A stretch of DNA of 51,943 nucleotides, counting the filler, from Streblomastix strix (taxonomy: Eukaryota): the NCBI GenBank assembly GCA_008636045.1. It is 3 parts of 3 records of this genome, joined end to end, with 100 filler letters (N's around TTAATTAATTAA, not from the genome) between each part and the next. Parts side by side here need not be neighbours in the genome. Positions count along the whole stretch, not along the records: positions 1 to 17,263 come from SNRW01000712.1; 2 more parts are not named here. The stretch is one strand, 5' to 3'. The position numbers and the translations under genes are program-made. The notes under the pieces were generated by a model. It worked only from the letters and a program-made list of their open reading frames with translations, made no database searches and had not been told where the DNA came from. This document shows positions 1 to 45,601 of this stretch, piece after piece; the stretch's first letter is position 1, and each line of letters opens with the position of its first letter.

Positions 1-746
1 AATTTAATAAAAATTAATTTTAAGAAACTATTCGAATAAATAGTGAATATATCAAATAAAAATGCTTGTGAAAATAAATTATGCTATTGAAAAATATGTT
101 TCAAATTATAAGGCAAAAAAATTATTAGGGAAAATAAAATATTCAAAAAAAGAGTTATTTTTATTTGTTTTTATCCGATCATCAAATGGAAAAATAAATT
201 AAAAAATGTCATTTAAATTGCACTAAATAAATTCGTGATAAAGATGATTTCATTAATGTGACACTTAATCGTAAATATTATAAAAAATTATTTGATATAA
301 TATAAAAGCATCATTTATGGAAAAAATATGTAGAACTATTGTGATTATAAGTTCTTGAAAATTTCGATTAATTTGATGAAGATTAACAACCAGTATTATT
401 TTATGATGAATTATATTCAACATTTAATTGTCGAGGATGTTATATTCATCCAATTTACTTTCATTTATATTATAATATATAGATCCAAATTATAGTGTAT
501 GAATCCAATGAAATGCTTATTTACTTGTTATTCGAGTCAAATAGACTTTTGGTATATAACAGAATGCACAATATTAAAAACATGTGGACGATGCTAAATT
601 CAAACATAATAATGAGAAAACATTTTTCTTAGTCACGTAATAAAATATGAAAAAATGAAAGATTTTTAATGAAAAGTGAAATTATACTTTATAAAACCGA
701 TTTTTTTGGAAGAATAAGACTAATAATTATAAGTATAATTGATTAA

Positions 747-1080
747 AAAAGTAACCAATTTAAAGTCAAATTTCAATTGTATTATAATCTGTATTGAATT
801 TATCATTCTTGAAATTTTAAATACGTTTAACTACAATAATTTTGAAAAAAAACAATTGTTGATTAATGAGGTATATTTTAATAAATATAAATGTGTAGTG
901 AAAAAGATATTTTTAAAGTAAATTTGTGATTTTATCATGTGCAATCTTAAATAGTCTAAATATGGTGATAAAACAAATAAAATATTATTATATTGCACAT
1001 TGAATACAAATTACGAAATATTAACATATTTTCGCGTTAAAATCAAAAATTTGAAATTTGACTTTAAATTGTTTACTTTT
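747..1080. repeat. Foldback/MITE-like element with ~30-bp terminal inverted repeats
   Basis: AAAAGTAACCAATTTAAAGTCAAATTTCAA (747-776) is the reverse complement of TTGAAATTTGACTTTAAATTGTTTACTTTT (1051-1080) with one mismatch. A weaker inner inverted pair lies at ~921-945 and ~992-1012. Confidence 0.6.
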
Positions 1081-1094
1081 CGTACAAATAATTA

Positions 1095-1455
1095 GGGTTG
1101 CTGGTGAAACCAAAACCTGTGGTGAAGTCAAAACCGCACTTTTTGATTTCTATATTTTTTAAAATTTATACCAAAATTTATATGTATTTTGAAGTCTATT
1201 TTCAAATATATGTTGATTAAATTATGAGAGATATTTGTTGGTTCGCAACCCAGTGATTTTCTAAAAAATTTAGAAAAAAATTGAAAATTTTATTTTTACA
1301 GATTTTAAGAATAATATTGTATAATAATAATTAATGTGCTACATATTAAATATAATATTAAAATTTATTTACAGCTTATGAAAATATTAATTTTTTAAAT
1401 CATTAAAAAGTAAGGTTTTAACTTCACCACACGGTTTTGATTTCACCTACAACCC
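1095..1455. mobile_element. Non-autonomous MITE, Tc1/mariner-like (TA-flanked, ~50-bp imperfect TIRs)
   Basis: Left end TA|GGGTTGCTGGTGAAACCAAAACCTGTGGTGAAGTCAAAACC. Right end GGTTTTAACTTCACCACACGGTTTTGATTTCACCTACAACCC|TA. The interior is non-coding. Confidence 0.75.
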
Positions 1456-1635
1456 TATATTTAAACATAAATTAATAAATATTAAAAAACAAATTAATTT
1501 GAAATAAAGAAATATACTAGTTTATTTTAAATTTTAATCTATTGAAAGCAGAATCAATAAATATCCGTGAAAAATCAGGTGAAATTTTCATATTTTTATG
1601 ATACCTTATGTCTATTTCTACGATTTTAAAAAGTA

Positions 1636-1675
1636 AGCCTCCGGAGGGGATTAAACTCTTGACCTTCACTTTATT
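1636..1675 (-). pseudogene. Degenerate inverted copy of the tRNA-Thr 3' half
   Basis: The reverse complement AATAAAGTGAAGGTCAAGAGTTTAATCCCCTCCGGAGGCT aligns to 1865-1904 with several mismatches in the T arm. Confidence 0.7.
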
Positions 1676-1817
1676 GACATCTTTAATCATTACACTTTAT
1701 GCTGTATTATCATATTCATTATTAGTCTATATTAATACAAATATGTAGATATCTTTTTGACAGCCTTCGTAGCTAAGTAGTCTATATTAATACAAATATG
1801 GAGGCCAATTTTTGATG

Positions 1818-1904
1818 GCCTTCGTAGCTAAGTAGCATAGCGTCAGTCTCGTACTTAATTTTCGAATAAACTGAAGGTCAAGGGTTCGATTCCCTTCGGA
1901 GGCT
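1818..1904 (+). tRNA. tRNA-Thr(CGT) with a 15-nt intron at the canonical 37/38 position
   Basis: Acceptor stem GCCTTCG/CGGAGGC, D stem GCTA/TAGC, anticodon stem TCAGT/ACTGA, anticodon CGT 1850-1852, intron 1854-1868, T arm AAGGG-TTCGATT-CCCTT, discriminator T, then a T run. The D loop lacks the usual GG. Confidence 0.85.
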
Positions 1905-2185
1905 CATTTTTTATTAATTTTATTCATATTGAACTAAAGAGGCTCGCAATATATGCAAAAAGTCAATAAATGACTATTCATATTATTCAAATCTAAATTC
2001 ACATTTTATTTTACATTACAGCATAATTCTCAATCAATATGCTACAAAAATATTTAAATATTTATTAAATCATTTTATTATTAAATGATTGCATTATTTA
2101 TAGAATTTTTTTAAATATAAATGTAGAAATGAAACATTTAAATTGAATTTAAAGTTTTTTTTTTATTTTGACAAAGATATTCAAA

Positions 2186-5100
2186 ATGTTCAATAATATT
2201 TATCAATTTCCTCCTTCATCCGTATAGTCAAATTGGCAGAATCCTTAAAACTATTTTTAATAATTAAACGCATTGATGAATTCTACTGGCGAGTCACAAA
2301 ATATATTTCTGAAAGAAATCAATAATATCTGTTTATCTTGTATGTATATATTTTAATTTCTAAAAATTTTAATAGAATTTCTGTTTTATAACATATTTAT
2401 ATATTTCAGCTCATGAATATTGCTTACAGTTAGTTAGACACGGCCTTGTTGAGAAAATTTGTGAAGTTTATAATCAAAATTAGACTAGAGACACAAAAGT
2501 ATTTTATTAGAACTTTCGATTATTATTCTTCATACTCTTAATTAACAAATTTCTATTTCATTCATAGAATTTATGTATTCATTGCTTGAATGCGATTGGA
2601 ATAACTCAAGGCGATCCTGAATTTGTAGGAGGAGGTTGCAGTCTAGCTCTACAGCTGATTGAAATATCTTCTGTTTGCCATTATTATATTTTTAAGTAGT
2701 CTTATATTTTTCTTAGAGCGCCAACGAAGAAGTAGGAAGAGCAGGGAAGAGAGAATTTTTCAAGATCGCAAGTACAAATGGTTGGAATAAAGATGATTCG
2801 TATATTGCTGGAGTTCTCAATGAGTGGTTTCAACAAGCATGTAATTATGAGCCTCAAAGCACATATTTTTAATTTGACAATTCATTTCAAACAGAAGTAA
2901 TAGAAGATTAAAATATTTAGTAAAAATAAATGCATCTGAATGAAGAATAAGAAAATATTCAAAATCAGACCAATGAAAAGATTTCAGATAAAGATGATGA
3001 TGAATAAGACGAAATATCTGACCACCAAATACAGCACCAAAAGCGAACCCACCAAAGATTCACCAACACAACAAGTAAGAACCGTAAAGCTGGAGATGAC
3101 AACAGCATCCAAAGTTAAGATTCAAGTGTTATTAATATGAATACAGTTGATGGACAAGATTAAGAATAAGAATAAGAATAAAGTGATGATGATCATGATA
3201 AGAGCGAGAGTGCACATCACCATAAACATCAACAGCACACTAATTACAGATCAAAGAAATAGCAGATCAATGAAACTAACAACAGTGGTACTGATCAAGA
3301 TGCTACTTCACATAAGCATAAAAGTTCGCATCACCACAAATGAGGATAGAAGCATGAAACTGGAAGACACAAGAGATAGGATGGGAAGAGAAGTGAAGGC
3401 AAAAACAAATAGAAACACAATCGTAAGAAATAAGACAACAGTTCGGATGAAGAATAAGAAGAAATAAATGAAGTAAACTAAATTAAAGAATAAGACGAAT
3501 AATAATAATATTAAGAAGATGATGAGAATATTAAGAAATAGAAATAAGAAAGAGAGTAAACATGTTATGATGAGAGACAGAAGAGAAAAGAGAAGAGGAG
3601 AGGATAATCAGACAATGAAGGAATAGAAGATGTAGAAGAATAATAGGAAAATGAAGAAGGAATAGTTGATTAGATCTAAAAAGATGGATAATATCAATAA
3701 ATGGATGAATAAGAAAGATAGGAATAGATTTAATAGGAGAGATAAATACAATAATAATCTGAAGCATCTGCACAACCTGTGAAAACGGTATTTCTCAGAG
3801 TTGATGAAGAATCAAAGAAAAGATATGAAAGAGCATTTTAATTTGCCTGGATTATACACCATCAACAGGTATTAGAGGAAGGAATGTTTCGTATGGGAAT
3901 TCTTCGCCCAGAATTACATTCAAAATAATATTATTAGCTTTAAATGTAATAAGAGTAGAAGAATAATGAAGAATAAAGAAAAATGGATAATGTTAAATAA
4001 GAATAAAATGATAATGAAAATAAATAAAATGAATAAATAAATAATAAAGAAACATAATAAGAATAATCAGATTCAGATTTTGATATGGATGATGATGAAT
4101 TTCTGGAATGTTTCTATGAAGGATCAATTGATGATGATGATGAAGAATATGATACAGATGAAGATGAAGTTGAAGATGAATAAACAGAGTAAATTAAAGA
4201 AGAAGAGAAATAAGTTGAATAAAAAATAGATAAACCGGAGTAATTATAAGAACATCAACAATCTATTGATGTGATACAATAGCCAACACCAGAAAAATAA
4301 GAGATTACAAAAGATAAATAAATAAAAATTGCTGATGAATAACAAACAATTAAAAAAGTTGAAGAATCTAAATCTAATGAAGAAATAAATGAGAAATAAG
4401 AAGATTTGCAGGAAGGGGACATTACTTTTGATGGATAAGTGTATCATAATTTGGAAGATAAAGAAGATGAACAATAATTCATTAAGCAAGGATTTATTGA
4501 ATATAAATAGGAATAAAAGATAGATAATATAGGAAATGATAAATAAGAAGATAAATAAATTCAGATCGTGAAAGATATATCAGAAACAAAAGATGCACCA
4601 ATCTCATCTCAATCAACTCTATTCTATCTTCCATCTTTGGGATCAGCATCTTTTTCATTATAATCAACACCCACTCAATAAGAAATAGATATAAATACTC
4701 CTTATACATTGGAATAATAAGAAATACAACACACTCCATTAATATCATTAAACACACTGTCACTTCAGGATTTAGATATAACATCCAGTGATTCTGTTCA
4801 ATTATAATCTGATCAACCAAAACATGATAATATTGATTTATAATAATAATCACCAACGTAATAAACTGTCGATCCAGGTATTCTTAAAGATGAATCTGAA
4901 AACAAAAATGAATAATAATAATAGAAACAATCTTATCATATTAATTCACCTCCTTCCAATATACATCCATCAATACCATTGCATATACCAATACCATCAA
5001 TAAGATAACATTCTCCATATTAGTAGAATATAAATACAAATATAAATTAGAGTCAAAATATTAATGTTTATTATCCAAATCAAAATAATAAGAAAAATGC

Positions 5101-6469
5101 CTTATTTCCAACTCCACCTCCCCCACCGTTACCTCATTTATTAAATCATTAAACTCAATCATCATATTTACCTTCTTTATAATAATATTCACCATAACAA
5201 TAACAATAATAATAATAATCTTCTTTATCTCCAAAATCAGCATCATTAATATTAGATACAGATTAACATAGTTCATCCTTGATTGCATCTGAACCATTAT
5301 CATAAGAAACAAATTCAATAACATCAACAGATATTACATAATAAACAACATCATCAGAGTTATAATAGAAAGATAAATAAGATTAATCACCACTACAATT
5401 AAAGAATAATTCTTCTTATTTACTAACACAAGATTCTAATTAACAACTAAGTCCATTTAAAGTCAAACTTATTCATTCTCCATCTCCAGCTCCATTAAGA
5501 ATATCCAATTCTCCTTCAGGATCATAATTCACTTATACTGGATCAGCATCCAGGACCCCAAAATAATAAACATACACTACTCCTCCTCCAATACAATCTA
5601 TTATTCCTCTTTCTTTGCCTAAACCAACTTAGATGATTAATTAATAGTAAATAAACTAACAATAGTCAATACTTTCGCCTAAAGGGAAAAATTAATCAAC
5701 ATCTCTCCCACCAGTGAATGATTCTCCATCGTTGCAGACAAAGACATAAAATTAAACATCTCCAACTCCACAAATAATAACAACACAAGTGAATCAATAA
5801 TCAAATGAGAACTAATCACCTCCTAAAACGTCTCAATCTATGAATAAGAAACATAAGAATAAATAATAGAAATAATAACAGTAATAACAACAGTAATAAT
5901 AATAACCTTAATAATAACAACAGTAATAATAACCTTAATAGTAACCTTAATAATAAACTCAATAATAAAGTCAATAATAATAATAACTTCCTCAGTAGAA
6001 AATCCAACCACCTCCATAATCACCATAGAATGGTCAAAGATCCCCATAGATTCCCCTAATGAATACTCCCCAATCAAATATTAGATAATAACAATCTGTG
6101 AGTGTGGTGAGTAATAGTAATCCAAATTAGAACTTCAAAGAACCTGTTCTTTAATAACCATTTGCATCTGCTAAAGGAAAACCACCTTTGAAAAACCAAT
6201 TTATGTACAAAAGCACAGTTCCATTAAATAGCACTGATTCATCCTCTGTTCAATCACAACCAATTGTATAACCGAATATTACTCCATAATATGCATATGC
6301 ACCAGCAATAAATGCTTATCAACCAATTATATAACCTTATTCGATGCAAGCAGCATAACCACAGAATATGTACACCAATCAATACTTGTATAGTGGGTTT
6401 GGATTCTAACATAATAGCACTTCAACATAATTCACATATCGCTCTGGTGACAAGAAGAAGAAACCATGA
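2186..6469 (+). CDS. Large low-complexity (Q/N/E/D/S/P-rich) hypothetical protein, 4 exons
   Basis: ATG at 2186 and three short GT-AG introns, then a long exon from 2717 whose frame matches the TGA at 6467-6469 when TAR=Gln. No domain recognised. Confidence 0.7.
5868..5990 (+). repeat. Coding AAT/AAC-rich tandem repeat (Asn-rich tract)
   Basis: Repeated AATAATAACAGT and AATAATAACCTT units inside the CDS. Confidence 0.7.
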
Positions 6470-6625
6470 CATGAACTTTGTTTATTTATTTGCATTTAAA
6501 CCAGTAAGAAACTTTTATGATTTTTAATAATATTATTAATAATTTTTATTTAAGTAATTCTTCAACTCACTATTTATTATTGTATGATTACTGTTGTATA
6601 AATATCAATAACAAATATAACATTA

Positions 6626-8437
6626 TCAAAGTTCATCATTTGTTTTAACACCAGACATTCCACCGAATGGATTTTATTGCCTTTATTTTTCTTCTTCTTT
6701 TTTTCTCTTTCTTTTTTCTTCCTTTTCTTTCTTCTTTTCTTCTTATTCCTCAACACGAATAGCTTCTTCATCAACTGCAATTGCTAAGTTAGGAATCTGA
6801 TTCTTCAGGAAACGGCGGATTCTCTGTGGTGAATAGAATATTCCGAAGTATATTGGATGTGTCTTGTCTCCAGCTGGAAACAGATACAGTGTTGGAAATC
6901 CATTCATTGTGTATACAGGTGGGTAATCATTCAAAGTCAGATCCATAGTTGCAAACACGACTCTCTTATCCTCTTTGACTTCTTCAGCCATCTCCAAAAG
7001 TTCAGGTTTGAGTTTCTTGCATTTATGGCACCATGGAGCAGTGAATGCAACAAACTAATATTTATCTTTAGCTTCATCTGAGAGGATTATTTCATTGAAT
7101 GTATCACCAACCATATGAATAAGAGCATTAGAGGGTTCTTTTGGGATTGGTTCAGATCTCAGTCTTAATGGAATCTCTCCAGAAAGAAATTATTCAACAT
7201 AAGCAGTTATAAGCCATGAATCTACACATGGAACTGGTTTTGGTGTTTATTGCTCTTATTCAGTCGCATTCTAAACATTTGATGCTTTTTCTCCAGTTGC
7301 TTCTTCAATTCTCTGATCTTTTGGCTTATTATCAACTGGGATCTTCCAATCACTGACATTCCAAGGTCTGTTCAATTTCTTCCTAATCTCTTCTTCTTCA
7401 CGTATAAGTAATGGATAATGAGCTCTTGTTCCATTAATTGGCGATGGATAAGGCTGCTCAATTGTGAATCCAGGAAGATTATCACCACTGAGACCCAATG
7501 ATCCTATTAAACGCCAGTGTATGTTGTTATCTACAAAAGTGAAGATCATTTTTCCTCGAAATTTCTTTGCTACAATTAATGCTTCTGAATAGAAATGGTT
7601 CATTTCAGTCTGGTTCTTATCAATGAAGTAGAATCCAACTGGTCCTTAGGATTCCATATACAGCTGCGCATTGTACGGAGATATCTCTTCAACTAAAGGA
7701 ATCCTGCATTAGTCTACCCAATCAATAAGTTGATAAAGTAAAGTAAATTATTTCTTGTTTAACAGTTGTTAATTTAATGAATTCTCTTAACTTGGAGGTA
7801 TCTTCTTTGTCTCATTATATGCAAAGTCTTCAATAAAGGCCTCGCGTATGTGATAAAATTGAAATGAGCTCTCCTGTTGATTATCCTCAGCGTCAACATA
7901 ACAATATACATCATCATTCGGATTTCGAGTGTTATAAGCAGTATTAAAGAAGGCTTCTTTATCTTTCTTCCTATTTGGTGGTATCTATGCTACAATGACA
8001 TGTTTGTAGAATTGGGAAATTTGCTCGATTTCGTTTGTGTTGTTGAAGTGACGAGGATAATTTGACGTTTTATCTCTTATCCAGTTATATATATCTGGTT
8101 TATTAATTTATCCATAAAAACCATCATTTTCAACCCTAAGCATATATAAAATAAAATTTATTTATCATGATAACAAATATAAGGCAAACATATAGACACG
8201 CATCATTGGCAGTTATTTAACATCGCCCCTTTTACAAGTCTGAACATCTTCCACACAATCTACTGATATCATATTTATTCCCAAGAATTATTTGCTTTTT
8301 TATATATCAGTAAATATTTTCAAGAAATTTTCGCTTTCTTCATCACGGGAAATGTAATAGAGAACAATCTAATCTTGCTCATCTTCGAAACCAACAGCAT
8401 AAAGAAGTGAAATAGCAAAAATAGCGAAAAGTAGCAT
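6626..8437 (-). CDS. Protein disulfide isomerase family protein (a-b-b'-a' type), 1 intron
   Basis: Signal peptide MLLFAIFAISLLYA. C-terminal thioredoxin domain FTAPWCHKCKKLKPE...GFPTLYLFPAG. ER-retention end NDEL, then TGA. Confidence 0.9.
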
Positions 8438-8796
8438 TTATATTCTAATCAAAAATACAAATAAAACAATGTAAAACATGAAAAATAATTGAATAATTGA
8501 GAATATATGAGTTTATTACTTTACAATTTAGTAGATGAAGAGAAAATGGCATTAGAATTTATTATTTTTTCCATTCGTTAATATCTAATTTTTATCTCTT
8601 AAAAATACAACATTTTTGCTTAAACATACTCAAATATAATAAATTATTTATTTTATACATCAATATTACTTGGATGTAGAGTAAATCGGCAGGAAAATTT
8701 GCTAGAAAAAAAAATAAAAAGTTCATATTAAAGTTTTGTATTATTACATTACATAACATTTTGACTTTGAGAAACACAAAACAAATGGTGAGCAAT

Positions 8797-8931
8797 TCAC
8801 GTTCCTAAGTCCTGCTCCCAGATTTCAATGCTATCTTCTTTGATTCTGAACCCTTCTTTTCTCAAAGCTTGTAATATCTACTCGCTGTGCTCAGATCCGG
8901 CTGTGTCTACAACTAAAAATAATAAATAATA

Positions 8932-8989
<58 letters not shown>

Positions 8990-10150
8990 TATATTAATTA
9001 AAAATAGCCCACCCATGTCAATCTCCTAATATCCAAGTTTCATTCCCTAATGTTATCTTGTTTGGTTTATATTGAAAATATTTCCTTTATTATCTCCAAT
9101 AACTGAGGCGAGACGGGACACCTGCCCCACCTTGTCATCTATTATAGCCTTGAAGCGTATACGCCTCTTTGATGATAACAATCCTCGATCTATAATACTA
9201 GATATGGTTGTTACATTGATGTTTCCACCTGCAATGAGCAAACATACCTTCTTGAATTAAGAAGGGATCTTCCCAGCTAACATTGCAGCAACTGGAACAG
9301 CACCAGCTCCTTCAGCTACAACATGCTGGTTCTCAAGAAGGAATAGAATGGCTTCAGATATTTCATCTTCAGATACAGCCAATATTCGTACTTTATGGGG
9401 TAATGTTTGAAGGAGTGAGAAAGTTTTAGTTCCTGCAGCTCTTACTTATATTTCATCTGCTATTGTAACTGCCTTCTTAAGTGTTACAAGGTGCCCCTAA
9501 CTAATGCTCTCTTACATGGCTGCAGAAGATGCAGCTTGTACTCCAATGATCTCAATATTCGGGTTAATTGATTTAGCAGCTATTGCAACTCCTGCTATTA
9601 GACCTCCTCCACCAATTGGAACTACAATACAATCTACATCTGGAATAGAATCTAATATATCAAGACACAGGGTACCTTATCCAGCTATGACTAACTCATC
9701 CTCAAATGGATGTATATAAGTGTATTTATTTTCATCTGCAAGTCTTTTCGCTTCTTCATAAGCTTCGTCATAATCATTTCCTTTTAATACAACTTCTGCT
9801 CCATATCTAGAGCAGGCTTCGATCTTGACATATGGGGTTTCCTCAGGCATACAAATAACAGCATGAATACCAAATTGTTGAGCAGCAAGTGCAACTCCAT
9901 GAACATGATTACCAGCGCTGCTAGCAATGATTCCATGTGATTTTTCTTCATCACTCAAGTTTGCTATCTTGTTGTATGCACCACGAATATTGAATGCACC
10001 TGTTCGTTGTAGACATTCGAGTTTCAAATACACTTACTGCGTTTTTGTGCTCAATGCGTCTGATCTGACCATGGGTGTTTTTTCTAGAACAGGTTCAAGG
10101 GTTGTTCTCGCTCGTTTAATATCTTCGATTGTTATTACACCACTACTCAT
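8797..10150 (-). CDS. Threonine/serine dehydratase (PLP fold II plus C-terminal ACT domain); catalytic Lys replaced by Asn
   Basis: Motifs [56 protein letters not shown], then an ACT domain. One intron at 8913-9012. Confidence 0.92.
8935..8986. repeat. (TA)n microsatellite within the dehydratase intron
   Basis: About 25 TA units. Confidence 0.95.
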
Positions 10151-10357
10151 GCAAAATGACTATAAAAATAATATAACGATTAGTAAAATATATTAAAATT
10201 GTTTCGTGCGAGAACAACAAGTGTTTTAAAGAAAAACAATTTCGGAGCTTTTTCTAGAATAGATGTGAATAGAAAATAGCTAAATATGATATTTTATAAT
10301 AGAATTATACAATTACAATAATTAATATAATTTATTTTTAATTAATATATTCAGATT

Positions 10358-11445
10358 ATGGCAGAAAATAGCAGTGAGCGTTTCTGTTTGATATAGTTAT
10401 ATTATAATTTAACAATCATAAAATTACATTACTACTGTATTAATATTATAATATTTATCCTGTTTTAAATACAATAATCACACAATCAAACAGTTTGTGA
10501 AATAACAATTTTTAAGTCCATTTTTAGCGCCTGTTATCTTGTAATTTCCTACTTGTTAAACATTTCTTTACACACACATATTTTTATCATTATTTTAAAA
10601 GATATCATGAATTTTACTATTTGACTCGTGTATATATTAAATTCTAAAATAAATCGCTTATTAAACATCAAATAATAATACACTTTCATTAATTCATATA
10701 AATTTTTACAGTTGTTTTTATTTAGCGTCAAATAGAAATGAATAATCCAAAAGTTGCCTATATCCTTAGAAAGACAACTATAAAAGGTCCAACAATGATC
10801 AGCACAATAGGAAAGAGGGACCAAATTGGATATTTTCTAAAAAGACAGAAAAGTTTGATCCTTTATTATCATTCATTTTATTTATTTTATTTTTAGTGGA
10901 AGATAATGAACAAGACGAAACAGCTTCAAAATGTTCAGAAAAATGTATTTTATTATTTTATTTTATTCATTTCAGAATAAAAAATATTTATAATCATTTG
11001 ACATAATTAGCACGACAAGTTACACACACACGAAGATTCACATGTATATTTATTTACATTATTTATTATTATTATTTGGTTCATATATTATAACTAAGCA
11101 TCATTTCTTTCACCAACACGAAAACAAATTGAAGATGCGAAGTTTAAAGTGAATGAATACAAACCTGGAGTTGGTAGATATACAATTAACTATAAGAGAG
11201 TTGATTCTGAAAAGTTTGTTTTCATATCTTTTTTTATATTAATAAATATCTTTTATTATAACATCAGATATAAACCCAATCCATTTGCTGAACTTTCACC
11301 AGCATTTTTATCGACTGTCAGAGTGGAACCTGGGGATATGAATAAAACAGGACGTGGATGGCTGACAACCAGATCAAATAGCACAGATACTAAAAGGATA
11401 CAAAGTCAGAATAATAACACATTAATTATTGAAGATTAATTCTGA
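10358..11445 (+). CDS. Multi-exon small protein with a SHIPPO/STPG-like PGxGxY motif (possibly axonemal); 5' end uncertain
   Basis: Exons bounded by GT/AG encode SFLSPTRK...EYKPGVGRYTINY and ELSPAFLSTVR. Stop TGA at 11443-11445. Confidence 0.5.
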
Positions 11446-11727
11446 AATTCATTTGATTGTTATTTTTTAAAATAAATTCCTAAAGTTAATAAAGTTTAAT
11501 TATTATTTGTAAATAAATTTGTGAAATATCAATAAAGAAAATAACATGATGAATATTTAGATTCGTTGAAGTGTTTATTATGATGAATATGATATGTTAG
11601 AATGATATGTTGGGAGAAAGTGTATGAATGTATTAGGTCAAAATTCCTCATTATTGAAAATTATTCAATTCTTCGCTCAATGTTGATTTATTATTTTCCT
11701 ATTTTCATTTTCTTCTTGTTTGTTTAT

Positions 11728-14700
11728 TCACTGAATCCATTCTTTTCCCCATTCCCATCCCTAAGAACCAGGTACTCCACGAGCTGATGGAGAAGAAAGC
11801 TTTTCAAATTTTGTGATCTGGAATGAGGAGTTAATATCATGTATATAGGCCTGAATAAATTATTATACGTTTTAATAATAATAAAATAAATTATAATATG
11901 TTATTAAAATAATAAAGCAAACGAAAACACGGACAGCACTTGGAATGTTAAAAACGTAATTCGGTTGCTCAACTCCCTCGACAAAGAATACGGCAGTGCG
12001 AGGAATAGTGGACATGTTTACTTCAACTGACAAAAGTTAATTTTGTTAGAAAGCATTATTTTATTTATTACCATAACTAAATCCTTTAATAATATGAGAT
12101 AAGTTTCCTCTGAAAAATATAAATTAATTGTCATAAGAAAATAGAATTTAAAGAAATAAAAAAATGTAATAAATAATAAAGTTAAAATAATCACACTTAC
12201 TACTATAACGGACTGTCTCATGCCCATCTATAAAAATAACATAATAATGTAAAATAATATAAAAAAATTAATAAATAAATATTTTTTTAATAGTAACGAA
12301 ATAATTTATTCATACTTCCTAATAAAACATGATGGTTGATGATTTTTCATTTTATTCAAATAAATTATAATATTTAAATAAATTAATTATATATAATATG
12401 ATAGTTTTAACAAACTTGCTGTTGATCCATTAAGATGATATAAATAAAAAGATCAATAAAAAAATTTTATTAATAAAATATAATACATTAACAGAGATTT
12501 CATATATTATCCATACAATCTGGTAATTATATTTAAAGAATAATATTTTGTGAAATTTAATCAAATAATATATAAAAATATGTTAATTATATAAAGGATG
12601 CTTATTTATTCAAACTTGCTATTTTTTATTTAAAAGAAAGAAAATATAGGCAAATATATAATTTAATTAATAAATGAACAAAATATGAATATAATAATAT
12701 ACAATAATAATAAAAAAATTCAATATTCATACCATCTATTATTTCATTTTGAAGAAAGGAAATATAAAAACAAGCATAAAATAAAAAATAAATAAAAATT
12801 TATTGATTGATTATTCTATTTTTAATAAACACACTCACTAAAATTTTATAAATATTTAATATCATGAAAAAATCAACCATGAAACATGTTAAATTTTTAA
12901 AATATAATAATAATAATAAATGAATTTTAATAAATAAAACGATAAATCTAATAAATTCTTAATCAATACAATAATAATATTCATATTTCATACTTGCTAA
13001 TATTTAAATAATATAATAGTAAAAATGAAAGGTTCATAATTATTAAATGAAAAAATTTTTAAATAAAAAAATTATTTAAAATTAATTGAAATAATTATAT
13101 TTATTATATACCTTCTGAAATTTTCAAATAAAATATATAAATATACAATTATTCATAAAATATTATATAAAATTTATAAGGAATAAATAATAAATTAAAA
13201 ATAAATTTAATATATATTTATAGTTAATTCATACAATCTGAAATTTCATGCAAAATGTTGATATTAAAATATTAAAATTCAATAATTGTGATTTACATTA
13301 CAATAAGTTAATAAAAAAATGAAAATAATATTTAATTAGATATAAATAAATTACAAATAATAATAAGCATACTCATTGAAACTTTATTATAGTAAGTAAT
13401 AGCAAAATAAATATAATAAAAATACAAAAAAATAACATAAAAAAATTATTATCAAAAAATGATTTTAATAATTACAACAAAAAAAATATAGTTATTATTA
13501 AAGAAACTATAAATATTCTAACTATTATAATTATTTCAAACTTTCTGATATTCCATTTGGATTAAATGGAAAATGTAAATAAAATCGAAAATTGAGATAA
13601 AATTTTTAATATATAAATTAAATGAATAATAAAAAATTGCTTTATAAATTTTAAATTATTATTACTACTTATTTATTCAAACCTCCTGATAATATTATTT
13701 ATTAGAAATAAAAATATAAGTACATATAATAATAATGAATAAATTTTATTTTATTTTGTAAAATGTATGGCAAACTTGCTATTATTTCATTATAATAAGT
13801 TAATAAATAAAAAATAAAAATAAAATAAGAATAAAAAGATTAATAAAATATTTATTAATAAAATATAAGTTTTATGTCAAATAGTTTTTCATACTCCCTG
13901 ATTCATTATTTAGGTAAAACATAAAGCAATAATAATGTTTATCAAATAAAGACATAAAAACTAAATTTTAGATTTTTTTTAAAAAAATTAATAATAATAT
14001 TTTAATATTATATAATTTCTTTTAATCACACCTTTCTCTGGTGTTTATCCTTTGTTAAATATACAAGATGATTCGGCAATACCAAAACCTAATAAAATAA
14101 TTTAAATAATAAATTATTATTAAAAATAATAAAAATATTAATACTCACGGGCTCATGAGAATAATTATTTCTTTTGAATACAAGTTCACATCGAACTATT
14201 CCTTCTCTAATTATCGGGTCAACTGTAATTGCACAAGAATAATTATTGTCACTTGAATGAATAAATGAAGTTTCCTCAATACGACTAGTTGTATCTCCTA
14301 CTGGAAGGTTAAGCTTTGGTACAATCTGAGCAAGAATTGTGGTTTGATTTTGAAGAGGTATTGGAGCAGAAGCAGGAATTATTGCTCGATCGAGAAATGG
14401 GTATTGAATAGCAGGTTATTGAAAAAATGATGAATTTAAGTTCTGAGCAGATTTCAATCTATCATTCTCTTCTTTCAGAAGTTTATTCTCAGCATCTTTT
14501 GCCCACAATTATTCTTGAATTTCTCTTCTTTATTGTTCAGCTATTTTTACTCTTTATTCAGAAACTTTCAACTATTCCTATGTTTAGCGGAGTTATTCCT
14601 ATGTTGTAATAAGCTATGAATATACATCCTATTGAGGTTATTAACCCAGAAAAGGTGGATATTGAATGGGGATCTGAGTTTGATTTTGATTTCATGGATT

Positions 14701-15138
14701 ATTTGGAGGTGATTTTGATGTTGGACGATTAACCTGAGCTGGTTGAGGTTATTGGTTCCAAGGAATGACTGGCGGTTGAGGTTATCCTTGAATAATAGGA
14801 ACATTAGAATGATATAGATCACGGTCCCATTAAGTCTTTATTAGTCTGAATTTGTGAATGTTTGATGTTTTGGGGAGAATCTCACATTCAAATTCGAGAA
14901 CTTTTTTATTACCCAAGTATGTGATCAGTTCATCTTTATATGGATTCGATCTTTCCACAACAATTTGAATTGGTTAATCAGTAGATGCCTGTGACAATGC
15001 AGAATCAAATTCGATTGTATAAATAACTGATCCATCATTTTAGTTCTTTTAAGACTGAAGCTTCCCACTCAATTTCGTTTTCCACCCAACATAAGCAGCA
15101 GGATTTGCAAAGTACTGTTGCAGATGAATTGAACTCAT
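11728..15138 (-). CDS. SPRY/B30.2-like domain protein with a microexon array; in-frame TGA at codon 149
   Basis: Exons 15138-14145, 14088-14032, [microexons], 12227-12197, 12109-11923 and 11850-11728 join in frame. They give ...ITVDPIIREGIVRCELVF...SFGIAESSCIF...ETVRYSSKGNLSH...LSVEVNMSTIPRTAVFFVEGVEQPNYVFNIPSAVRVF...GWEWGKEWIQ*. The N-terminal part has a globular region, a P/Q-rich linker and a coiled coil. Confidence 0.8.
12316..13897 (-). other. Array of 14 candidate 3-nt microexons (yAG|NNN|GT)
   Basis: 5' to 3' on the minus strand: GGA 13895-7, CAA 13776-8, GAG 13683-5, AAA 13542-4, TGA 13373-5 (acceptor AA, defective), ATT 13235-7, AAG 13112-4, CAA 12994-6, TGA 12835-7, ATG 12733-5, CAA 12616-8, ATT 12517-9, CAA 12416-8, GAA 12316-8. 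Spacers are 88-166 nt. Confidence 0.85.
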
Positions 15139-15408
15139 TCTATAATTATAAAAAATAATATAATAGTATTAATTGAATAAATAAGATATTTAATCTGAAA
15201 TTTGATTTAATAATTATTAATTTAAAGTATTGATATTTTGGGTCTCAACAAGTGGATAAAAAATTAAAATTAGATATTAATTTAGTAAAATGAATTAATA
15301 TAAAAAATATTAAGTATTCGATTAGTTAAAAAAATGCTGATTGATTAGCAAATTGCTAAATTAAGCGAAAAAAATTCAATACGATTTTGGTTTGCAAATA
15401 TATTAATA

Positions 15409-17263
15409 ATGTTATGTATTAAGTACAATAATTATGAAAATTAAATTCATAATGATAAATATTGCAACATTATGTTAGAGAAGTTAGTAGTGAGACGTAA
15501 AATCAAGGTAAAGTAAATTTTTCTTTATCTCTGCATAAAATGAATTATTAATTAGAATAAGAGAAAATAATTATATTTAAATAATCTTTATAATTCAGAA
15601 ACCTTGTGCTGCTGCAATAAAGACAAATGGGCAGCGGACAATTGCGTTCCAAATCTTTATTTTTGCTTCTCACTTTACTCTGTTATTAAATTTGTATTTG
15701 GAAGGGTTATTTATAATTATTATATAACAACTATTTTTCTATAGCATATCTATAGAGACAAAAAATAATGAATTAAAATTAGTCAAGAACAAGAAAGCAA
15801 ATTTTATGTCCTTATTTAAGCCACAACAACTGCAACATAATATAATCCAAATTAACTTTCCTATTACAATTTATATTATTTATTCAATATTAGTATAATA
15901 TACTTTAATCATATTAATTTAATACTATAAAATGACTTTTTATAAGTCGCTGAAAAAACGTACTGCAAACGCTTTAAGATAAACCATTAAAACTTTGTTT
16001 AATTTTATTTGTATTTAATGTTATTTCTTAATAGATTCATTAGAAAATATAAATATTTTAATTCTATGGAGTGGCAAACGAGGTTCCGAAACTTTGGTCA
16101 GAAAGAAACAAAGCTAATGAGCATGCTTGCCTTAGTAGAAGGTGTAAATTCTGCAAATAGTAGTTAATAAAAAAGTTCTACCAATTCTTAATGTAATAAC
16201 CAGAATTCTTAACCTAGTACAAACGAAATAAATCAGAATTTATCAATCGAAGTATAAAATTTCTTATCCTTTTTTTATTTAGTTGATACTTTTTTCTTCC
16301 TTATTCATTTTTATTTATAAATCAGGATTTATAACAACTTCTTCTTTCTCTTCTTATCAAGAATCAAAACATTACTAATACGAAATCCATATCTACAATC
16401 GTTTTTGTTGACATACCTTGTTTAACACAAGAATATTTCAATCCATTTATTAATAAAGTTAATGAATAGGATTAGAAATTAAATAAAACAAATGAAAAAG
16501 TTGAAGATGAATAATAAACCATAAAAACTTAAATTATTAATAATACATCAAAAGAAGTTGAATAATAAAATAAATAAGAAAATATAAATAAAGAGTAAAT
16601 TCATCAATAAAAATCAAAAGGAAAAGGAAAGAAAAACAAATTTAAGAAATAACAGGATGAATCAAAATAAGAACCTTAATCAATAAATATATAATAGTCA
16701 TTAAATATTTAAACATCATCAAAATATTAGTAATAATTCAATTCAAAATAAAAATGGTCAATTCTAAATATTCTCCAATAATAATAAATAAACAATTAAT
16801 CTTCTAATATTCCATCATCAAATCAATCTTTCTCTTTATCCTCATAATCATATTCATTATAATCCATTCATTCAGTAGAAACAAATCCAACAGTCTATGA
16901 AAAAGAAGTCTTCAATTTGAATGGGAATACATTAGATCCTTATTTGACCAAATTAGAACAATTTGTGAATGAAAGAAACAGAATGAAAAAAGAAATATTA
17001 AATTTATAATAAAATAATACAAATATTTCTAATAATAAGAAAAACAATAAGAATCCAACTTTATTTTCACTTCCACCTCCTCTTCGTGGACCACAATGGA
17101 GGCAGATTCAAATTCAATTGAATTAATAAATCAAATTAAAACAAACAAATAAGAAACAAAATCGGATTAAATTAGAGAAATTGATTCTGAGCCGACAGGA
17201 AATGATTGAAAATGAATATCCAATTACATTTTATGGAGATTTAGAGCAAAGAAAGAAAGAAAT
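15409..17263 (+). CDS. N-terminal part of a probable REX1/Rnh70/REXO5-like RNA exonuclease, truncated by the contig end; 5' exons uncertain
   Basis: DLQQLLLSLL...ISTIVFVDIPCL (~16325-16425) and LILSRQEMIENEYPI (~17180-17225) resemble the motifs that precede the DEDDh domain in this family. The catalytic domain is not visible. Confidence 0.45.
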
Positions 17264-17363
17264 NNNNNNNNNNNNNNNNNNNNNNNNNNNNNNNNNNNNN
17301 NNNNNNNTTAATTAATTAANNNNNNNNNNNNNNNNNNNNNNNNNNNNNNNNNNNNNNNNNNNN
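17264..17363. other. Artificial contig linker (N44-TTAATTAATTAA-N44)
   Basis: Exactly 100 nt and identical to the linker at 34616-34715. Confidence 0.97.
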
Positions 17364-28776: not shown

Positions 28777-31700
28777 TCAACATCCCACGTACGAGCTTCG
28801 CCCTCCAGAGTTGTGAATCCCAGTCGAGAAATTGGGTGGTGCAGATGCTGGAAGTGTGGATGCAGGCTTTGAAAGACACCATTCATACCATACTCTGTGT
28901 TCATCAACCACTCTCCACATCTCAAAAATAATTCTATCTCCTCTTTGCACAAAAACGGCTGTGTTTAGTGGAAACCATATTGGAAACCAAGAGTACATAT
29001 CATGTGATGGACATGATGGATGTGTTGAAAGAACAACAGTTCGTCCACCTTCCTCTTTGTATTGATCAATCCTACTAGTAACTTTATTTTATCTCTCGAT
29101 TTACTCTTATTATGATCCATCAACTTTCTATGTAACTTTATCTGAGAAAAGTTCTGAAGTGAAATATCCAGCAAAACCATGGCATCTGGCAGTCTCCATT
29201 ATATCAAATTCAAGTCTAATATAGCGAGAATTGTGATTATTGTTTGGTTACATGGAATAGAAAGGATGTATTTTGATTCGTTAATGATCAAGTTATTATT
29301 TTATGTTAATTTAATCTTCTGTTTTTATTTCATTTTATTCTAAATTTAATTTCTTAGGAATATCATCAATCATAATATTATTATCAAATTAATTGTAATT
29401 ATTATCATTGTAATTCCATCCAATTTCTGCTTCATATGAAGAAGGATGATTGAAAGTGAAACATTCTTATGGTTTACTAAGTAGAATATGTTTGTTAAGA
29501 AGTACCACATATGGAGTTTCAAAGACTGTCATTGCAATCTCTTTTGGACGAACAGTACTATAGTATATATATAATATGTATATAATATGATATAATTAAT
29601 AATATGTATATATATTAATAATATTATCTTTCATATGAACAATACCCACTTCCACCTTCTGCACCAACATCCTTATGTTGAGATGTAGAAAGATTGCATA
29701 TCTCATTATACAATATTGGACAACTTATTGGGACTAAATAGGATGTTGATTATTATGGAATTGAAATACCTAATACATAATAATATACATTAGTATATAT
29801 TAATAAATGAATAATGCATATATATCTTATATGTATATTAATAATATACCTGTTTTCCATCTTAGGAATCTCTATCCACCATCAAGACATTCAGGAGACA
29901 ATTCATTATCACCAAATGATCCAAGAAGTTCAGATACAATTAAATCAGATTATCCAAATAATGTTGAAGGATGGATTGATTAGGATTAAGATGTTTAGTT
30001 TTATTCATTTATTAATTTCTTGAATGTTGGTGCTGTACAATCACGCATATCTGCAGGAAGTATCTAAACTGACTTAGGCCATTCTTTCCCTATAGTAAAT
30101 AAATTAAGTATTATAATAATAAAAATGAAACATCTATACATATACAAATTAATTCATTAATATATACCAGTCAAAGCTTTCAATGTTATTATTGCATTAG
30201 GATTCTTCTCTAATGCGATTACTCTTGGTTTGAGAGGAAGAGAAAGAAGACGTGTGAGTAATTCTTATTCTTAATCATCATATTTATTATCTTAACTTCC
30301 ATTATCAGATTCTAAAGGTGATAAAATCCTTCTTATCGACTCTGGAATAATAAAACTTCTTTATTTTTCTATGTTATCATCATTTTCATCTTTATTTATT
30401 TTCTCTTCCTTTTTAACTTGTCCATCTTCTTAATCTTAAACTTTCCTTTTCTTATTTTCTTTTTCTAATGTCCATTAACTAGCCATTAATTTTCTGAATA
30501 TAAAATAAAATGAAAATAATTAATCAATAAAAAATAATCATCTATTATCAATAAAGATATTCAGAACCTTAATTAATTTGCTTTCTTAACAGCTCTGTAT
30601 ACACATCTTATAATTGGTCCTCTTCCTGCACCAAGAAGCATAATAAGTGGAGAAATAGATTATAATAAAGATGAAGATGAAGATGAAGAAGAAGAAGAAG
30701 ATGAATTAATGTTTGTTAATTAATTAAGTAAAGTAAATAAATCTGTTTCTTATTTATGTGACTAAGGTTAAGATTCAGGACTCAATGATTTCTTTATTTA
30801 AATTCTTTCTTTCCTTCGTTATTCTATAAATTGAATAACTTCTGCTCCAAATACTAATTAGGGAACTTCACAAAGTGCTCTTGTAACTGCCTATCAATAA
30901 TAAATAAATTAATTTATTAAAATTACAAATTAAACAATATTCAAGAATAAAAATGATGTAAAATTTCGGTTTTTTAATTAATTTAATATTAAATTATACT
31001 TATTAATAGAGTTGATATTTGACAGGATCCTTCTCAAATGTTTCATATGTCTATAATAACAAATAAATAATATATAATAATAATAATATAAGAAAAAATT
31101 AATATTTTCCTTTATTTTTAATATAGTAATTATTTTCTCTCTTCAAACTTGTGTATCGAGATGATCTTTAAGAGGTTGCAGGGGTGATTGAAGATAATCT
31201 CTAATTGAAAATGCATTATAAATAAATAAAACAATTAATGATATTATATAAATAAATATAATTTATTCTTCTCTCACTATTGTTATAAAACATAAACAAC
31301 CTATAAGACATTAAATAAGACTCAACAGAAGTGAATAATGAAGGATAAATGGTCTTAGAAATATATTATAGATATGTTTTATATAACATATGCATTTCTC
31401 TATAAAGAAGAATTTTAGATTAGTTTTATTATTTCAATTACTTCTTAGAATTTGAATCTTGTTTTGTTGATTACTGATGAGAATTCTAATTAATTGATGA
31501 ATGAGATTCAGATGATGAAGATGATTAAGAATTAGAACATGAATCATCATCACCTTCTTCTTCTTCATTATCATCATCTTCTTCTTCATCCTCTTATTAA
31601 TCTTTTCTTCTTCCTAATCCTTATATTCTGTTTATTATTAATTCATTCTTATCTGATTTATTATCTTTATTCATCTCATTAATTATATTTTAATTCTTTT

Positions 31701-34615: not shown

Positions 34616-34715
34616 NNNNNNNNNNNNNNNNNNNNNNNNNNNNNNNNNNNNNNNNNNNNTTAATTAATTAANNNNNNNNNNNNNNNNNNNNNNNNNNNNN
34701 NNNNNNNNNNNNNNN
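34616..34715. other. Artificial contig linker (N44-TTAATTAATTAA-N44)
   Basis: Same 100-nt structure as 17264-17363. Confidence 0.97.
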
Positions 34716-37718: not shown

Positions 37719-39677
37719 TCATCCGCTCCGAACCATTGAGCCTCTAATCTCTCCAATTACCTCCATACTTAGCACTTATGGGTCAGGTGCATCATCAAAC
37801 ATAAAACGAACGACAGCATCACATAAATAGTGCATTAATGGCGTAAAATTAAGCAATAAAGGGCTAGGATAAGAGCGGGTAAAGCAAAATTATTTAAAAT
37901 CATTTTATTATTATTTTTCATTTATCAACATAGTGTCGTTAATTTCTCTTATTAAATTTCCATGTAAAATAACTTATATATTTGTTCTAGTTCCGAATTA
38001 TGTAGAGTTATATCCTCGTTGAAATGAATCATCAGTTGCTTATTTCCATGCTAGCATAAATTTATTAGGATACATTGTCTTAGTTGCTTTTGAACCTTTA
38101 TATAACGTAGTAGTATAAAATATGTTGCCGCCTCCATTAGGTGTTCCATAATATTGATTATCCCCATCGCGTATATTAGTATTTTCAAATGTTAATGAAT
38201 GATATAAATCGCTGGGGCACTTACCACATCCTATACAACAAAACAATCAAACATTTAGCTATTAACAATTTGCGTAAGTGCTTCGTATGGTGTAGGTATC
38301 ACGTGCCGCTAGTTAATGATTAAATCAAAGCCTTAAAACAATACGGGGAAAAACCAAGTAGGATATTAAGGCATCGCAAACGTCATAAATATTGATTTGA
38401 TATTTGAAAATGACATAATACTTTATAATGAATTACCAGTCTTGAAACCAACAAATGGATAGTTAGTGGATTACGCTCGCAATACTTGAGTTGGGAAATT
38501 AATCAATCTTTAGTTCCTTATGAGTTCAACAATTGCCTCTTCATTTTCCACGTTAAAACAAACATTTTAGATCTCTAATTTATTAAATTTTGCATTTTGT
38601 ATTTAACTGATTGTCTTTTATGGTTCTTTAGCATCCGCAGCAGAACCTGACATATTTACAATTCTAACGATATATCTTTCATAGTTAATAATATCTTCTG
38701 CTTGTGCAAGCATTAAATAAACTATATCTGGGTTCTCTGGTGGTATCATATGATAAGCTAGATGGTTATTTTTTACCATATCTGTTTTATTTAACCATAC
38801 AACTTTTAAATCTTGCAGGAAATCCTACATCCAGAGTTATAAATATAATGATGCGTAGTTTCTGGTCAATACAGGAAAAGAATTAAATATAGGGTTCAAT
38901 TAATTCAAATCCAAAACTCCACTAAACGTTATATCTTCAGGTATTAGATAATAATATTCTGTTTTGGGGGAAAGTGGAGGCCCTGCAGCTGTTGCTTTAG
39001 CATTAATATCGCTCATTTTCACGTCTATAAATACTCCACAGTGGCGTTTCCCTGCAATGATACTTTCAAGGGGTGATACACTGACGGAGTTACTAGTGCA
39101 TAAATCACTTAATGAGTTTGAACATATGACGGCTTGCTCTCTTGCATAAATTGATGTACCCCATAATTTCGTATTATCTTTACATATTGCAAATTAATTA
39201 AAAGGACCGCATGCAGTAGAGAATCCAAGCCAAAAGTGTAATAATTCTTCAGGATGATAACCTTATACTGCTTATGTCATTTTTTCGGCCGCTGCAGTTG
39301 GGTCTTCATCAGCATTAAAGTTATTAGCTGCGTTTGCAGTTGGGGCATCATCGACGTCAGCATCAGCGGCTTTATTTAATTATATTGTTAGTGTATTTTT
39401 TGGTATCGTAATTGTCCAATTTACCTAGCAAGTTTGAACCATAGAACAGGTAGCGGTTCCTCTAGCTGCAGGGGGGGGGGGCACGTGTATATTTTACACC
39501 TGTAGAAGTTAATAAATCCATGGGTTGGTCAAAGAATTATTATTTTGATATTTCGAATGATTATGCGTTTATGCTCTTTGTTTTCTATACCTCGCCCATA
39601 GCCATATAGCCACTAATATAGTCCGAGTGTTGCATTTTCGTCAATCTATTTAAATAATCGCTTGCTGAGAATGACGT
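37719..39677 (-). pseudogene. Probable major capsid protein (double jelly-roll); start mutated to ACG and frameshifted
   Basis: About 650 codons, beta-rich, with LHFWLGFSTACGPFNQFAICKD...AREQA and GVLDLNQLNPIFNSFPVLTRNY. The call rests on size, context and recalled similarity to metamonad Maverick capsids. Confidence 0.65.
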
Positions 39678-39784
39678 TTTTAAATAAATAAAAATAAATA
39701 AAAAGCACTCGCAAGCATTTACTTTTAAAATTTTTATTTTAAACTTATTTTTTATTTTTTTTTATTTTTTTATCAGGGTATAAA

Positions 39785-40351
39785 ATGACATAGGAAATAA
39801 TCGAATGGCAAATATTAATCGTTGATACTGATTATGAAATATTAACTGAAGAGCCGCATACAATAAAAAGAAGAAATAACAATTATATTCCAAAAATTTC
39901 AATAAATAATTGTGGGTATTAATAAATTAATTTATCAAATTAATTGTATTTATTGCACAATGTAATAGCATCATAGTTTATTCCAAATCCTGATAATTTA
40001 CCTTAAATTGACCATATAGACTAAAATAAATTAAATAATAGTATAAATAATCTCAGGTGGATTTCAACATCAAATAATTGCAAAAACAAGTCAAGTAATA
40101 ATAAAATAAAATATGAATATTTTGACGATTTACCAAATGGAAGTTAAAAATTAGATATATATAATGGACATGATTTAGAAGGTTATAGTTTTGATTAAGA
40201 ATTGAATGTATATTTCAATAAAGTGCTAAAATTTAGGAAATTAATTATTCGTTTAAAAGAATAAAAATATCAATTTATCAGTGTAAGAGATATATAGGAT
40301 CATAGGGTAGAGGTTTATTTAGACAGATTACGAAATAATAACTATGAATGA
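39785..40351 (+). CDS. HNH homing endonuclease-like protein (188 aa, intact)
   Basis: LHNVIASQFIPNPDNLPQIDHIDQNKLNNSINNLRWISTSNN is the HNH_3 signature. Confidence 0.9.
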
Positions 40352-40385
40352 TTAGATGCTTTTTTATATTTTTATTATAAAATAA

Positions 40386-40592
40386 ATGGGTTTTTCCTCA
40401 AAAATAGCAAATTTTGGTTCGAAGATACTTGGTGGCGTTAAGCACGCGGCGTAATGGGTTGCTGCTGCTCTCCATAAAGTTCTTTCAACTGTAGCGGGCC
40501 CCGTAGGAATGATTCATCCAGCCGTCGGGTCAACATTAGGCGCAGGTGCAGGACTGGCTGGGGCAGTTGATAGACTGGTAAATAAACGCTGA
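40386..40592 (+). CDS. 68-aa Gly/Ala-rich amphipathic peptide, candidate membrane-penetration protein
   Basis: MGFSSKIANFGSKILGGVKHAAQWVAAALHKVLSTVAGPVGMIHPAVGSTLGAGAGLAGAVDRLVNKR*. Confidence 0.75.
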
Positions 40593-40643
40593 CAGAACCA
40601 AATTAGGAACAATTAACGGAGATTTATTTTTATTTTTATATAA

Positions 40644-43005: not shown

Positions 43006-43036
43006 AAACCAAAAGGATTATTTTATTTTTATATAA

Positions 43037-43480
43037 ATGGATAAGCCTATAAAATAATTATTTAATGAACTTGTTAAATGTCATTTTGAAAATGAGGATA
43101 CAATAAGAGTAGCCATCAATGCACTAAATAATTTGCTTATCAAAGAAAGCAAAGAGCCACATCACCCACTTTTGAAAGAATTACAGAGAATAAGTAAATA
43201 ATTTCTAAATTTATAAAATAAATTATAAAGCATAAAATAATAAGTTGATGAGGAGGAATATAAAAATAAACTATTTAATGAACAGGAGAAATATTTTAAA
43301 AATATATACAATTAAATTAAAAAATAATTGGATTAAAATAATCAACCCATGCTAATCAAAAAATATATAATATCCGAAGCTAATGAAATAGAGAAATAAA
43401 TATATGCTGACTTTGTGAATGATGCGTAAAATAGTAGCTTGGCCAATTATTATTAACTTTTTTTATCAAAAAAATGCTGA
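43037..43480 (+). CDS. Viral hypothetical helical protein (147 aa)
   Basis: TATAAATG start, open to TGA with TAR=Gln. Confidence 0.6.
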
Positions 43481-44532
43481 TCAATGATCAACTTCTTTTA
43501 AATTCATAAGTAAATTGAGATATTGGATATATTTAATGATTTCTATTGTTTTATCCCCGAGAGATTCCACAAATGTATAATGGTTTTTGAACTTTTAATA
43601 AATTTATTTTTCATCTTCATTTAAATTATTGTTTTCTATTAAAGCTTCAAATATTTTAAATATCTCGTAATCTGTTGCGTTATATTAAAGGCCGATATTT
43701 GTTGCCAATTAATAAATTTACTCCATTTATATATTAGATAAAATATAAAAATAAAATATTTCATATCCCGCATTATTATTATTCTGTTTTGGTTTCATCA
43801 ATATAGCTATTGATGGATTCATTTATAGCCTTCTTTTTATGATTCGATTATATAATTTGTTTTATGCTTATTTTCTATTCATTATTATTCGTATCATTAA
43901 TGAATATATATTTTTCGTTATATTTCCCGTATTATTTTAACTTTCTATAATATGTATAATCGCTGTTTTTGGCTTTGGTTAATTGATAGAATTGCAAGTT
44001 CCATAAACGGAGTTCATTAAATTATATGCCGTTGATCTAATAGATTAGTTGCCCGTCTTTCTTTACTTGGTCTTGGCTAAGGTAGAATTCCAGTTTCTCA
44101 AATTGATTTGTTATTTTATAGATAGATAAAAAAATAAAAAATATTAAAATCAAACTAAATATTTATCTGGGGAGTTTAATAATTTTAAATATAAAATATA
44201 ACGGAAATGCTCAGCTAATTCGGCATCCTTTTATGCAATCGCTTCGTTTAAAAGTGCCTCAATTTATTACTTTGTTAATTTATTCCAATGAATTATATTT
44301 TGATTCTTTCCCATTTTCCTTCTAAAAAAAATTATATTATATAAATTGTAATATTAAGGGGAACCAATACTATGTCTAAATACCCCCATGATTATTTGAT
44401 TAAATTAACTGTATCCGTTAATTTATCGGGTATCGATACGGATAAAATAGATATAATAAAATTGAAGCCATAAAACATATAATTCATACAGGCTATAATC
44501 AAATTCAAAATGTTCATTTTATCCAAATAAAA

Positions 44533-45549: not shown

Positions 45550-45601
45550 TAATAAATAACGTTTATTTTTTTTTATTTTTCATTTTATTATTTTATATAA
45601 A

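Follow-up and report, generated by a model that had tools for sequence, protein, structure and literature searches.

INTRODUCTION

The closest described counterpart of the locus analyzed here is found in the truffle Tuber melanosporum, whose nank genes (NACHT-ankyrin NLR) carry tens of alternatively spliced, codon-sized (3-bp) exons according to PMC4986451, PMC9815663, and PMC13449251, citing Iotti et al. 2012 (Fungal Biol 116:261). The description of Schistosoma MEGs (10.1101/2023.06.21.545858) gives exons of 3 or 6 to 81 bp, mostly 15, separated by introns of 0.1 to 5 kb and encoding most of a secreted protein. Variation of the domain concerned here is known from TRIM5alpha, TRIM21, and the fish finTRIMs, where the strands of the SPRY/B30.2 fold are connected by hypervariable loops that make up the ligand surface (PMC2657112). 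Finally, the diglycine/triglycine switch of cytohesin-1 is an isolated 3-nt microexon that changes the binding specificity of its domain (PMC6314551).

Here, we analyze a 51,943-nt stretch of the Streblomastix strix genome (GCA_008636045.1; "the window"), which joins three parts of three records, positions 1 to 17,263 coming from SNRW01000712.1. An initial annotation had proposed, for positions 12228..14031, 14 three-nucleotide microexons within a SPRY-like domain as a candidate splicing-based diversity generator.

RESULTS

Candidate one-codon exons in a long intron

The intron at 12228..14031 (minus strand) is 1,804 nt long, has 12.7% G+C, and is bounded by GT...AG ends (Table 1). It contains 13 YAG-NNN-GT units, compared to a mean of 0.57 and a maximum of 4 in 5,000 dinucleotide shuffles; the initial annotation had named beforehand, as grounds for abandoning its proposal, a motif no more frequent than in shuffled intron sequence. 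With the donor widened to GT[ATG]T[GA], the real intron still holds 13 units, while shuffles have a mean of 0.11 and at most 2, and even when the best spacing from 0 to 15 nt is picked for each shuffle, the mean is 2.1 units and the maximum is 5. In the real intron, spacings from 0 to 15 nt other than 3 nt give at most 4 units each, and GT lies exactly 3 nt past YAG at 13 of the 21 YAG. Each of the 14 GT[ATG]TG words of the intron has an assigned place, one being the true first donor, 12 serving intact units, and one serving a broken fifth unit, which leaves no stray donors. A second array was not found in the window, 4 per kb being the highest density at other spacings.

The triplets, their order, and the 88- to 166-nt spacing reported in the initial annotation were reproduced exactly on re-reading. 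Its count of 14 microexons holds for 13 intact units; unit 5 has CAA where YAG is expected, with its GTATG donor intact, and an AAG located 9 nt before that donor could yield an in-frame, stop-free 9-nt exon. The units divide the intron into 15 sub-introns that are ordinary in length and composition (8 to 17% G+C). With respect to the donors, the statement that their types are shared with ordinary introns is borne out within the SPRY gene, where GTGTG (two) and GTTTG (one) also serve three other donors; it rests on these, the window-wide intron census being crude and noisy. In the GAG and AAG units (microexons 3 and 7), AG directly abuts GT, so that a zero-length splice is possible there.

The spacers between units resemble each other at near-background level (mean pairwise z of 0.68, with z > 5 in 2 of 105 pairs), and Tandem Repeats Finder detects only AT-rich repeats of 6 to 21 nt in the intron, with no period of about 100 nt. 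Maintenance of the splice signals and of the exact 3-nt length while the spacers diverged points to selection on splicing, and the 13 three-base pieces are likely one-codon exons.

Table 1. Features of the SPRY gene and its array intron (window coordinates)
Feature	Position	Strand	Details
Large 5' exon	14145..15138	-	ATG at 15138, in-frame TGA, Gln/Pro linker, predicted coiled coil, start of SPRY
5' region	15138-14695	-	148 aa, unclassified
In-frame TGA	14692..14694	-	Upstream of SPRY domain
Exon before array	14032..14088	-	57 nt, ends in phase 1
Array intron	12228..14031	-	15 sub-introns and 14 candidate microexons
Microexon 1 (candidate)	13895..13897	-	GGA
Microexon 2 (candidate)	13776..13778	-	CAA
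Microexon 3 (candidate)	13683..13685	-	GAG, AG directly before GT
Microexon 4 (candidate)	13542..13544	-	AAA
Unit 5	13373..13381	-	TGA at 13375-13373, GTATG donor, CAA for YAG; possible 9-nt exon 13381-13373
Microexon 6 (candidate)	13235..13237	-	ATT
Microexon 7 (candidate)	13112..13114	-	AAG, donor GTATA, AG directly before GT
Microexon 8 (candidate)	12994..12996	-	CAA
Microexon 9 (candidate)	12835..12837	-	TGA, read out of register, no stop
Microexon 10 (candidate)	12733..12735	-	ATG
Microexon 11 (candidate)	12616..12618	-	CAA
Microexon 12 (candidate)	12517..12519	-	ATT
Microexon 13 (candidate)	12416..12418	-	CAA
Microexon 14 (candidate)	12316..12318	-	GAA
Exon after array	12197..12227	-	31 nt
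SPRY exon	11923..12109	-	187 nt, preceded by 87-nt intron
Last exon	11728..11850	-	Terminal TGA, preceded by 72-nt intron

Coding consequences of inclusion

The exons flanking the array are in phase 1 on both sides and the spliced model is open, in agreement with the expectation that the frame would be kept. With junctions in phase 1, every added codon would draw on two neighboring exons, so that skipping an exon would alter residues as well as length. Counting those with a stop, 6,479 distinct translations arise from the 8,192 possible exon subsets. Long frames and Pfam matches of neighboring genes require TAA and TAG to be read as Gln, and under this code (code 6), the only stop is the one predicted, from ATT joined to the last GAA, though it affects 1,040 of the 8,192 subsets (12.7%); under the standard code, the claim of a single possible stop fails, and 2,832 subsets contain one. 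The form with all 13 exons adds 13 residues to the exon-free form, or 16 with unit 5 included as a 9-nt exon, and both are stop-free. A stop-free all-13 frame is also found in 71 to 80% of shuffles and is thus uninformative on selection. The array contributes 39 nt to a gene that also has exons of 994, 187, and 123 nt, and whose other introns measure 56, 87, and 72 nt.

The host gene encodes a SPRY-like domain

The spliced model, built from the exon before the array and the three exons downstream of it, matches its best homologue at 46% over 172 aa (E = 2e-47). HMMER returned 164 relatives at E ≤ 0.001, while word-index protein searches found no homologue; the 10 relatives that were looked up come from Streblomastix (7), Blattamonas (2), and Monocercomonoides (1). 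Judged by these matches, the gene is a member of an oxymonad-expanded SPRY-like family. The Pfam scan of the window gene pieces gave no SPRY match. Among family members, 7 of 41 aligned match PF00622 at E values up to 0.1 (best, 0.0014), and the first family member scores 13.4 bits, below the curated Pfam SPRY cut-off of 26.3.

The homologue P0009, which is 47.6% identical to the spliced model, has a predicted structure with a pLDDT of 95.9. The PDB chains listed as its matches bear SPRY (TM of 0.54 to 0.67), and 195 matches were obtained at E ≤ 0.001. Together with a profile match to TRIM67 (E = 0.0089) and a comparison score of 0.96 to SPRY clusters in the Atlas, this agrees with the domain named in the initial annotation, and a SPRY/B30.2 beta-sandwich fold is supported by way of the homologues. 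The array junction corresponds to residues 55 to 57 of P0009, which in the model form a coil between strands 36-41 and 61-65, and not a buried strand, the placement that would have spoken against the proposal. The loop is predicted to lie on the variable face of the SPRY domain, and, going by the alignment to TRIM67, it may correspond to the TRIM v2 loop.

No paralogue was found within the window, and scans for the family confirmed none of 594 pattern stretches in metagenome contigs and gave 0 of 32 related loci in viral contigs. Alignments of 10 of the 167 homologues start at query residues 80 to 89, around the junction, which is a weak, query-biased hint of an intron. In P0006, P0022, P0002, P0021, P0079, and P0080, the family sequence starts at about the array junction and the N termini are unrelated; these models may reflect a long or microexon-bearing intron mishandled by gene predictors. 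The 148-aa front region of the SPRY gene has no Pfam family and no match among 150 homologues, and many homologues carry a kinase in its place.

Loop lengths in homologues and the ancestral register

Loop lengths were compared over 99 anchored alignments out of 167, with the exon-free form as the reference. Relative to this form, homologue loops are equal in length in 22 cases and longer by one residue in 30, by two in 38, by three in 3, and by four in 2, with 4 being shorter. Among the 22 closest homologues (at least 40% identity), the +2 class is the largest (16), followed by +1 (4), +0 (1), and a single +4 that is a mis-anchored +2. The longest loop found by a second method is +7 (1 of 52), and the +13 of the all-exon form lies beyond every homologue loop seen. 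Because these loops are taken from predicted gene models, in which exons of 3 nt would go undetected, the absence of longer ones counts as weak evidence.

At the last junction codon, all 38 homologues of the +2 class have N, Y, H, or D, as do 10 of 30 in the +1 class and 8 of 22 in the +0 class, and these four residues are the full set encodable by xAT, that is, any base followed by the downstream AT. DGN is the commonest triple (11 of 33) and is rebuilt by exons 10 and 14, a match that is not significant alone (chance of 0.10 to 0.17); over all exon pairs, the mean family fit is not above the nulls (P = 0.25 to 0.65). The exon-free form is also family-like, sharing its loop length with 22 of the 99 homologues, 5 of which have D at the site. 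The prevalence of +2 loops, the residues at the last junction codon, and the DGN triple suggest that the ancestral loop had about two 3-nt exons and was expanded later, and a loop with a few exons included is supported by the homologue lengths better than one with all of them.

Possible damage to the allele

Two features of the 5' exon were overlooked in the initial annotation. An in-frame TGA is located at 14694-14692 on the minus strand, 148 codons after the ATG. Splicing it out with the frame kept would take one of 26 GT-AG introns, all of which have 32 to 40% G+C, compared to 8 to 17% for the array introns; no in-frame Met was found downstream of it. In addition, the 3' end of this exon is ambiguous, lying either at 14145 (donor GTATTA at 14144, frame kept) or at 14149 (donor GTGAGT at 14148, frame broken), with the 314 codons past the TGA being open when the 14144 donor is used. 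The allele may be dead or in early decay, and the TGA could also be an assembly error or a single-allele variant.

Similar patterns in metagenomes and other window content

In a DNA pattern scan of metagenomes for three units in a row, 10 of 64 parts supplied 116 loci, and the overall number is estimated at about 780. Varied triplets with a spacing of at least 45 nt occur in 6 of the 116 and a G+C content below 25% occurs in none, nor was a SPRY-family match found among them. Two loci, L074 (7-1222, plus strand) and L075 (259-1650, plus strand), consist of near-identical tandem intron-like units of 71 and 61 nt, respectively, separated by variable 3-nt pieces; these units pass gradually into diverged introns in which the spacing of 3 nt is retained. 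A similar tail is seen in L065 (302-868, plus strand), and the ORFs of these loci did not reveal their host genes.

Elsewhere in the window, genes with Pfam matches on the minus strand encode a thioredoxin/PDI-like protein (6629-8164), a PLP enzyme of the PALP family (8894-10477), and PRMT5 (28780-30153). Positions 37900-50600 form a broken block in which KilA-N (45542-46441) is the sole Pfam match, three other pieces having none; from its DNA-polymerase-like pieces, P-loop ATPase-like frame, and capsid-like frame, it resembles a polinton by eye. Two pairs of 44-nt N runs, at 17264-17363 and 34616-34715, lie at the joins between parts.

DISCUSSION

How the array may work

We see an even chance that the array consists of real one-codon exons that are variably included, changing the length of the loop and, via the phase-1 junction codons, its sequence. 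The flanking exons would supply G and AT on either side of the D-G-N-like triple of the family, and because of this, the ancestral loop would have had about two 3-nt exons. Intron-plus-exon units would have been duplicated long ago; the introns would then have diverged, with selection preserving the splice signals and the length of 3 nt. Since splice sites 3 nt apart would not be engaged simultaneously, the exons would be joined successively, with some being skipped; each skip would alter residues of the loop as well as its length, through the neighbor codons, and the loop would participate in partner binding. Against variable inclusion, 12.7% of the subsets carry a stop, the exon-free form is itself family-like, and skipping requires the removal of introns of at least 200 nt, compared to 56 to 87 nt for the other introns of the gene. 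PMC1501061 gives 46 to 229 nt for 21 Streblomastix introns, and given this range, long skips may be disfavored.

A constant, near-complete inclusion, by which the array would write one fixed loop that is 13 (or 16) residues longer, is possible and on the unlikely side. Sequential removal would be the simplest path through sub-introns that are all ordinary, the full forms with and without unit 5 lack stops, and a set with CAA four times and ATT twice is a poor design for diversity. However, 13 extra residues fall outside all 99 anchored homologue loops and the +7 maximum, and the open all-13 frame, being common in shuffles, is no sign of selection. The stepping-stone alternative, in which the units would aid a piecewise, recursive-like removal of the long intron and the three bases would normally be lost, appears very improbable to us. 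Exon-free joining is in frame with a loop length that matches 22 of the 99 homologues, and AG directly precedes GT in two units. Recursive splice sites have AG followed by GT without a spacer; only two such sites exist, both within units. A spacer of precisely 3 nt, repeated 13 times, is sensible only if the bases reach the mRNA, and the closest homologues are mostly +2.

That the array is a relic, once working and now situated in a decaying gene copy whose allele yields no protein, is improbable, and it concerns the allele, not how the array works. The in-frame TGA with overly G+C-rich candidate introns and no later in-frame Met, the lost AG of unit 5, and the wrong frame that follows from the GTGAGT donor at 14148 would all fit such decay. 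Against this, use of the 14144 donor leaves 314 codons open past the TGA, any decay must be recent since 13 of 14 units are intact, and the TGA is possibly an assembly error or present in one allele only. Chance, or a satellite repeat that carries the motif, is barely conceivable: 110 of the 116 metagenome loci with three units are indeed repeats, with uniform triplets or short periods, but the Streblomastix intron has no periodic repeat, its spacers are diverged, none of 5,000 shuffles comes near it, and it lies in frame inside a gene. As the spacers are not tandem copies and Tandem Repeats Finder gives no periodic repeat, a satellite was ruled out.

Variable inclusion of one-codon exons would also be the basis of a further proposal, namely, that the oxymonad lineage independently built a splicing-based SPRY receptor-diversity generator with hundreds to thousands of loop variants for symbiont or virus recognition in the insect gut, which we consider doubtful. 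Were splicing of the array variable, one locus would let a single-celled eukaryote vary a binding loop residue by residue, and even if it is constitutive, 13 consecutive 3-nt exons would probe the spliceosome at splice sites separated by only three bases. Judging from the divergence of its introns, the array seems to be old and maintained. Furthermore, 3-nt exons are invisible to gene predictors, so annotations of the family may err at this loop.

Comparison with known systems

In the open literature searched, there is no report of oxymonad microexons or of a Streblomastix SPRY protein, and neither SPRY nor microexon occurs in the main text of PMC6759080. The view of the initial annotation that no such system had been described is contradicted by the alternatively spliced 3-bp mini-exons of the Tuber melanosporum nank genes, which are already in print.

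Like the Schistosoma MEGs, the array is a run of very short exons with potentially variable products; unlike in MEGs, all exons here are 3 nt long, the introns measure about 100 nt, and the array is confined to a single loop within a folded domain of cytosolic type, and we do not find the secreted protein with most of its coding region in 6- to 81-bp exons and introns of 0.1 to 5 kb that defines MEGs. TRIM5alpha, TRIM21, and the finTRIMs share the SPRY/B30.2 fold, but owe their diversity to positive selection on point mutations and duplicated genes rather than to splicing. Cytohesin-1 has a single exon and two isoforms in place of an array.

In Tuber nank, a candidate recognition protein from an expanded family has numerous codon-sized exons, and its recognition domain is proposed to be varied through alternative splicing. 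The array resembles it in presenting a long series of 3-bp candidate exons, each bounded by canonical splice signals. The two differ in that a fungal NLR is concerned there and the SPRY loop of an oxymonad-type protist is concerned here; NACHT and ankyrin Pfam families are absent from the three gene pieces. At best, the SPRY array would work like Tuber nank by analogy, without being a member of that group. Codon-by-codon loop diversification is reported, in the literature searched, only for the truffle NLR genes. Should the diversity generator prove true, it would, with the fungal and other protist cases, mark single-codon exon arrays as a path to variable receptors that microbial eukaryotes have taken repeatedly. 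While the principle is thus already in print, what is new here is the lineage, the domain, the diverged introns, and an ancestral two-exon register that can be reconstructed.
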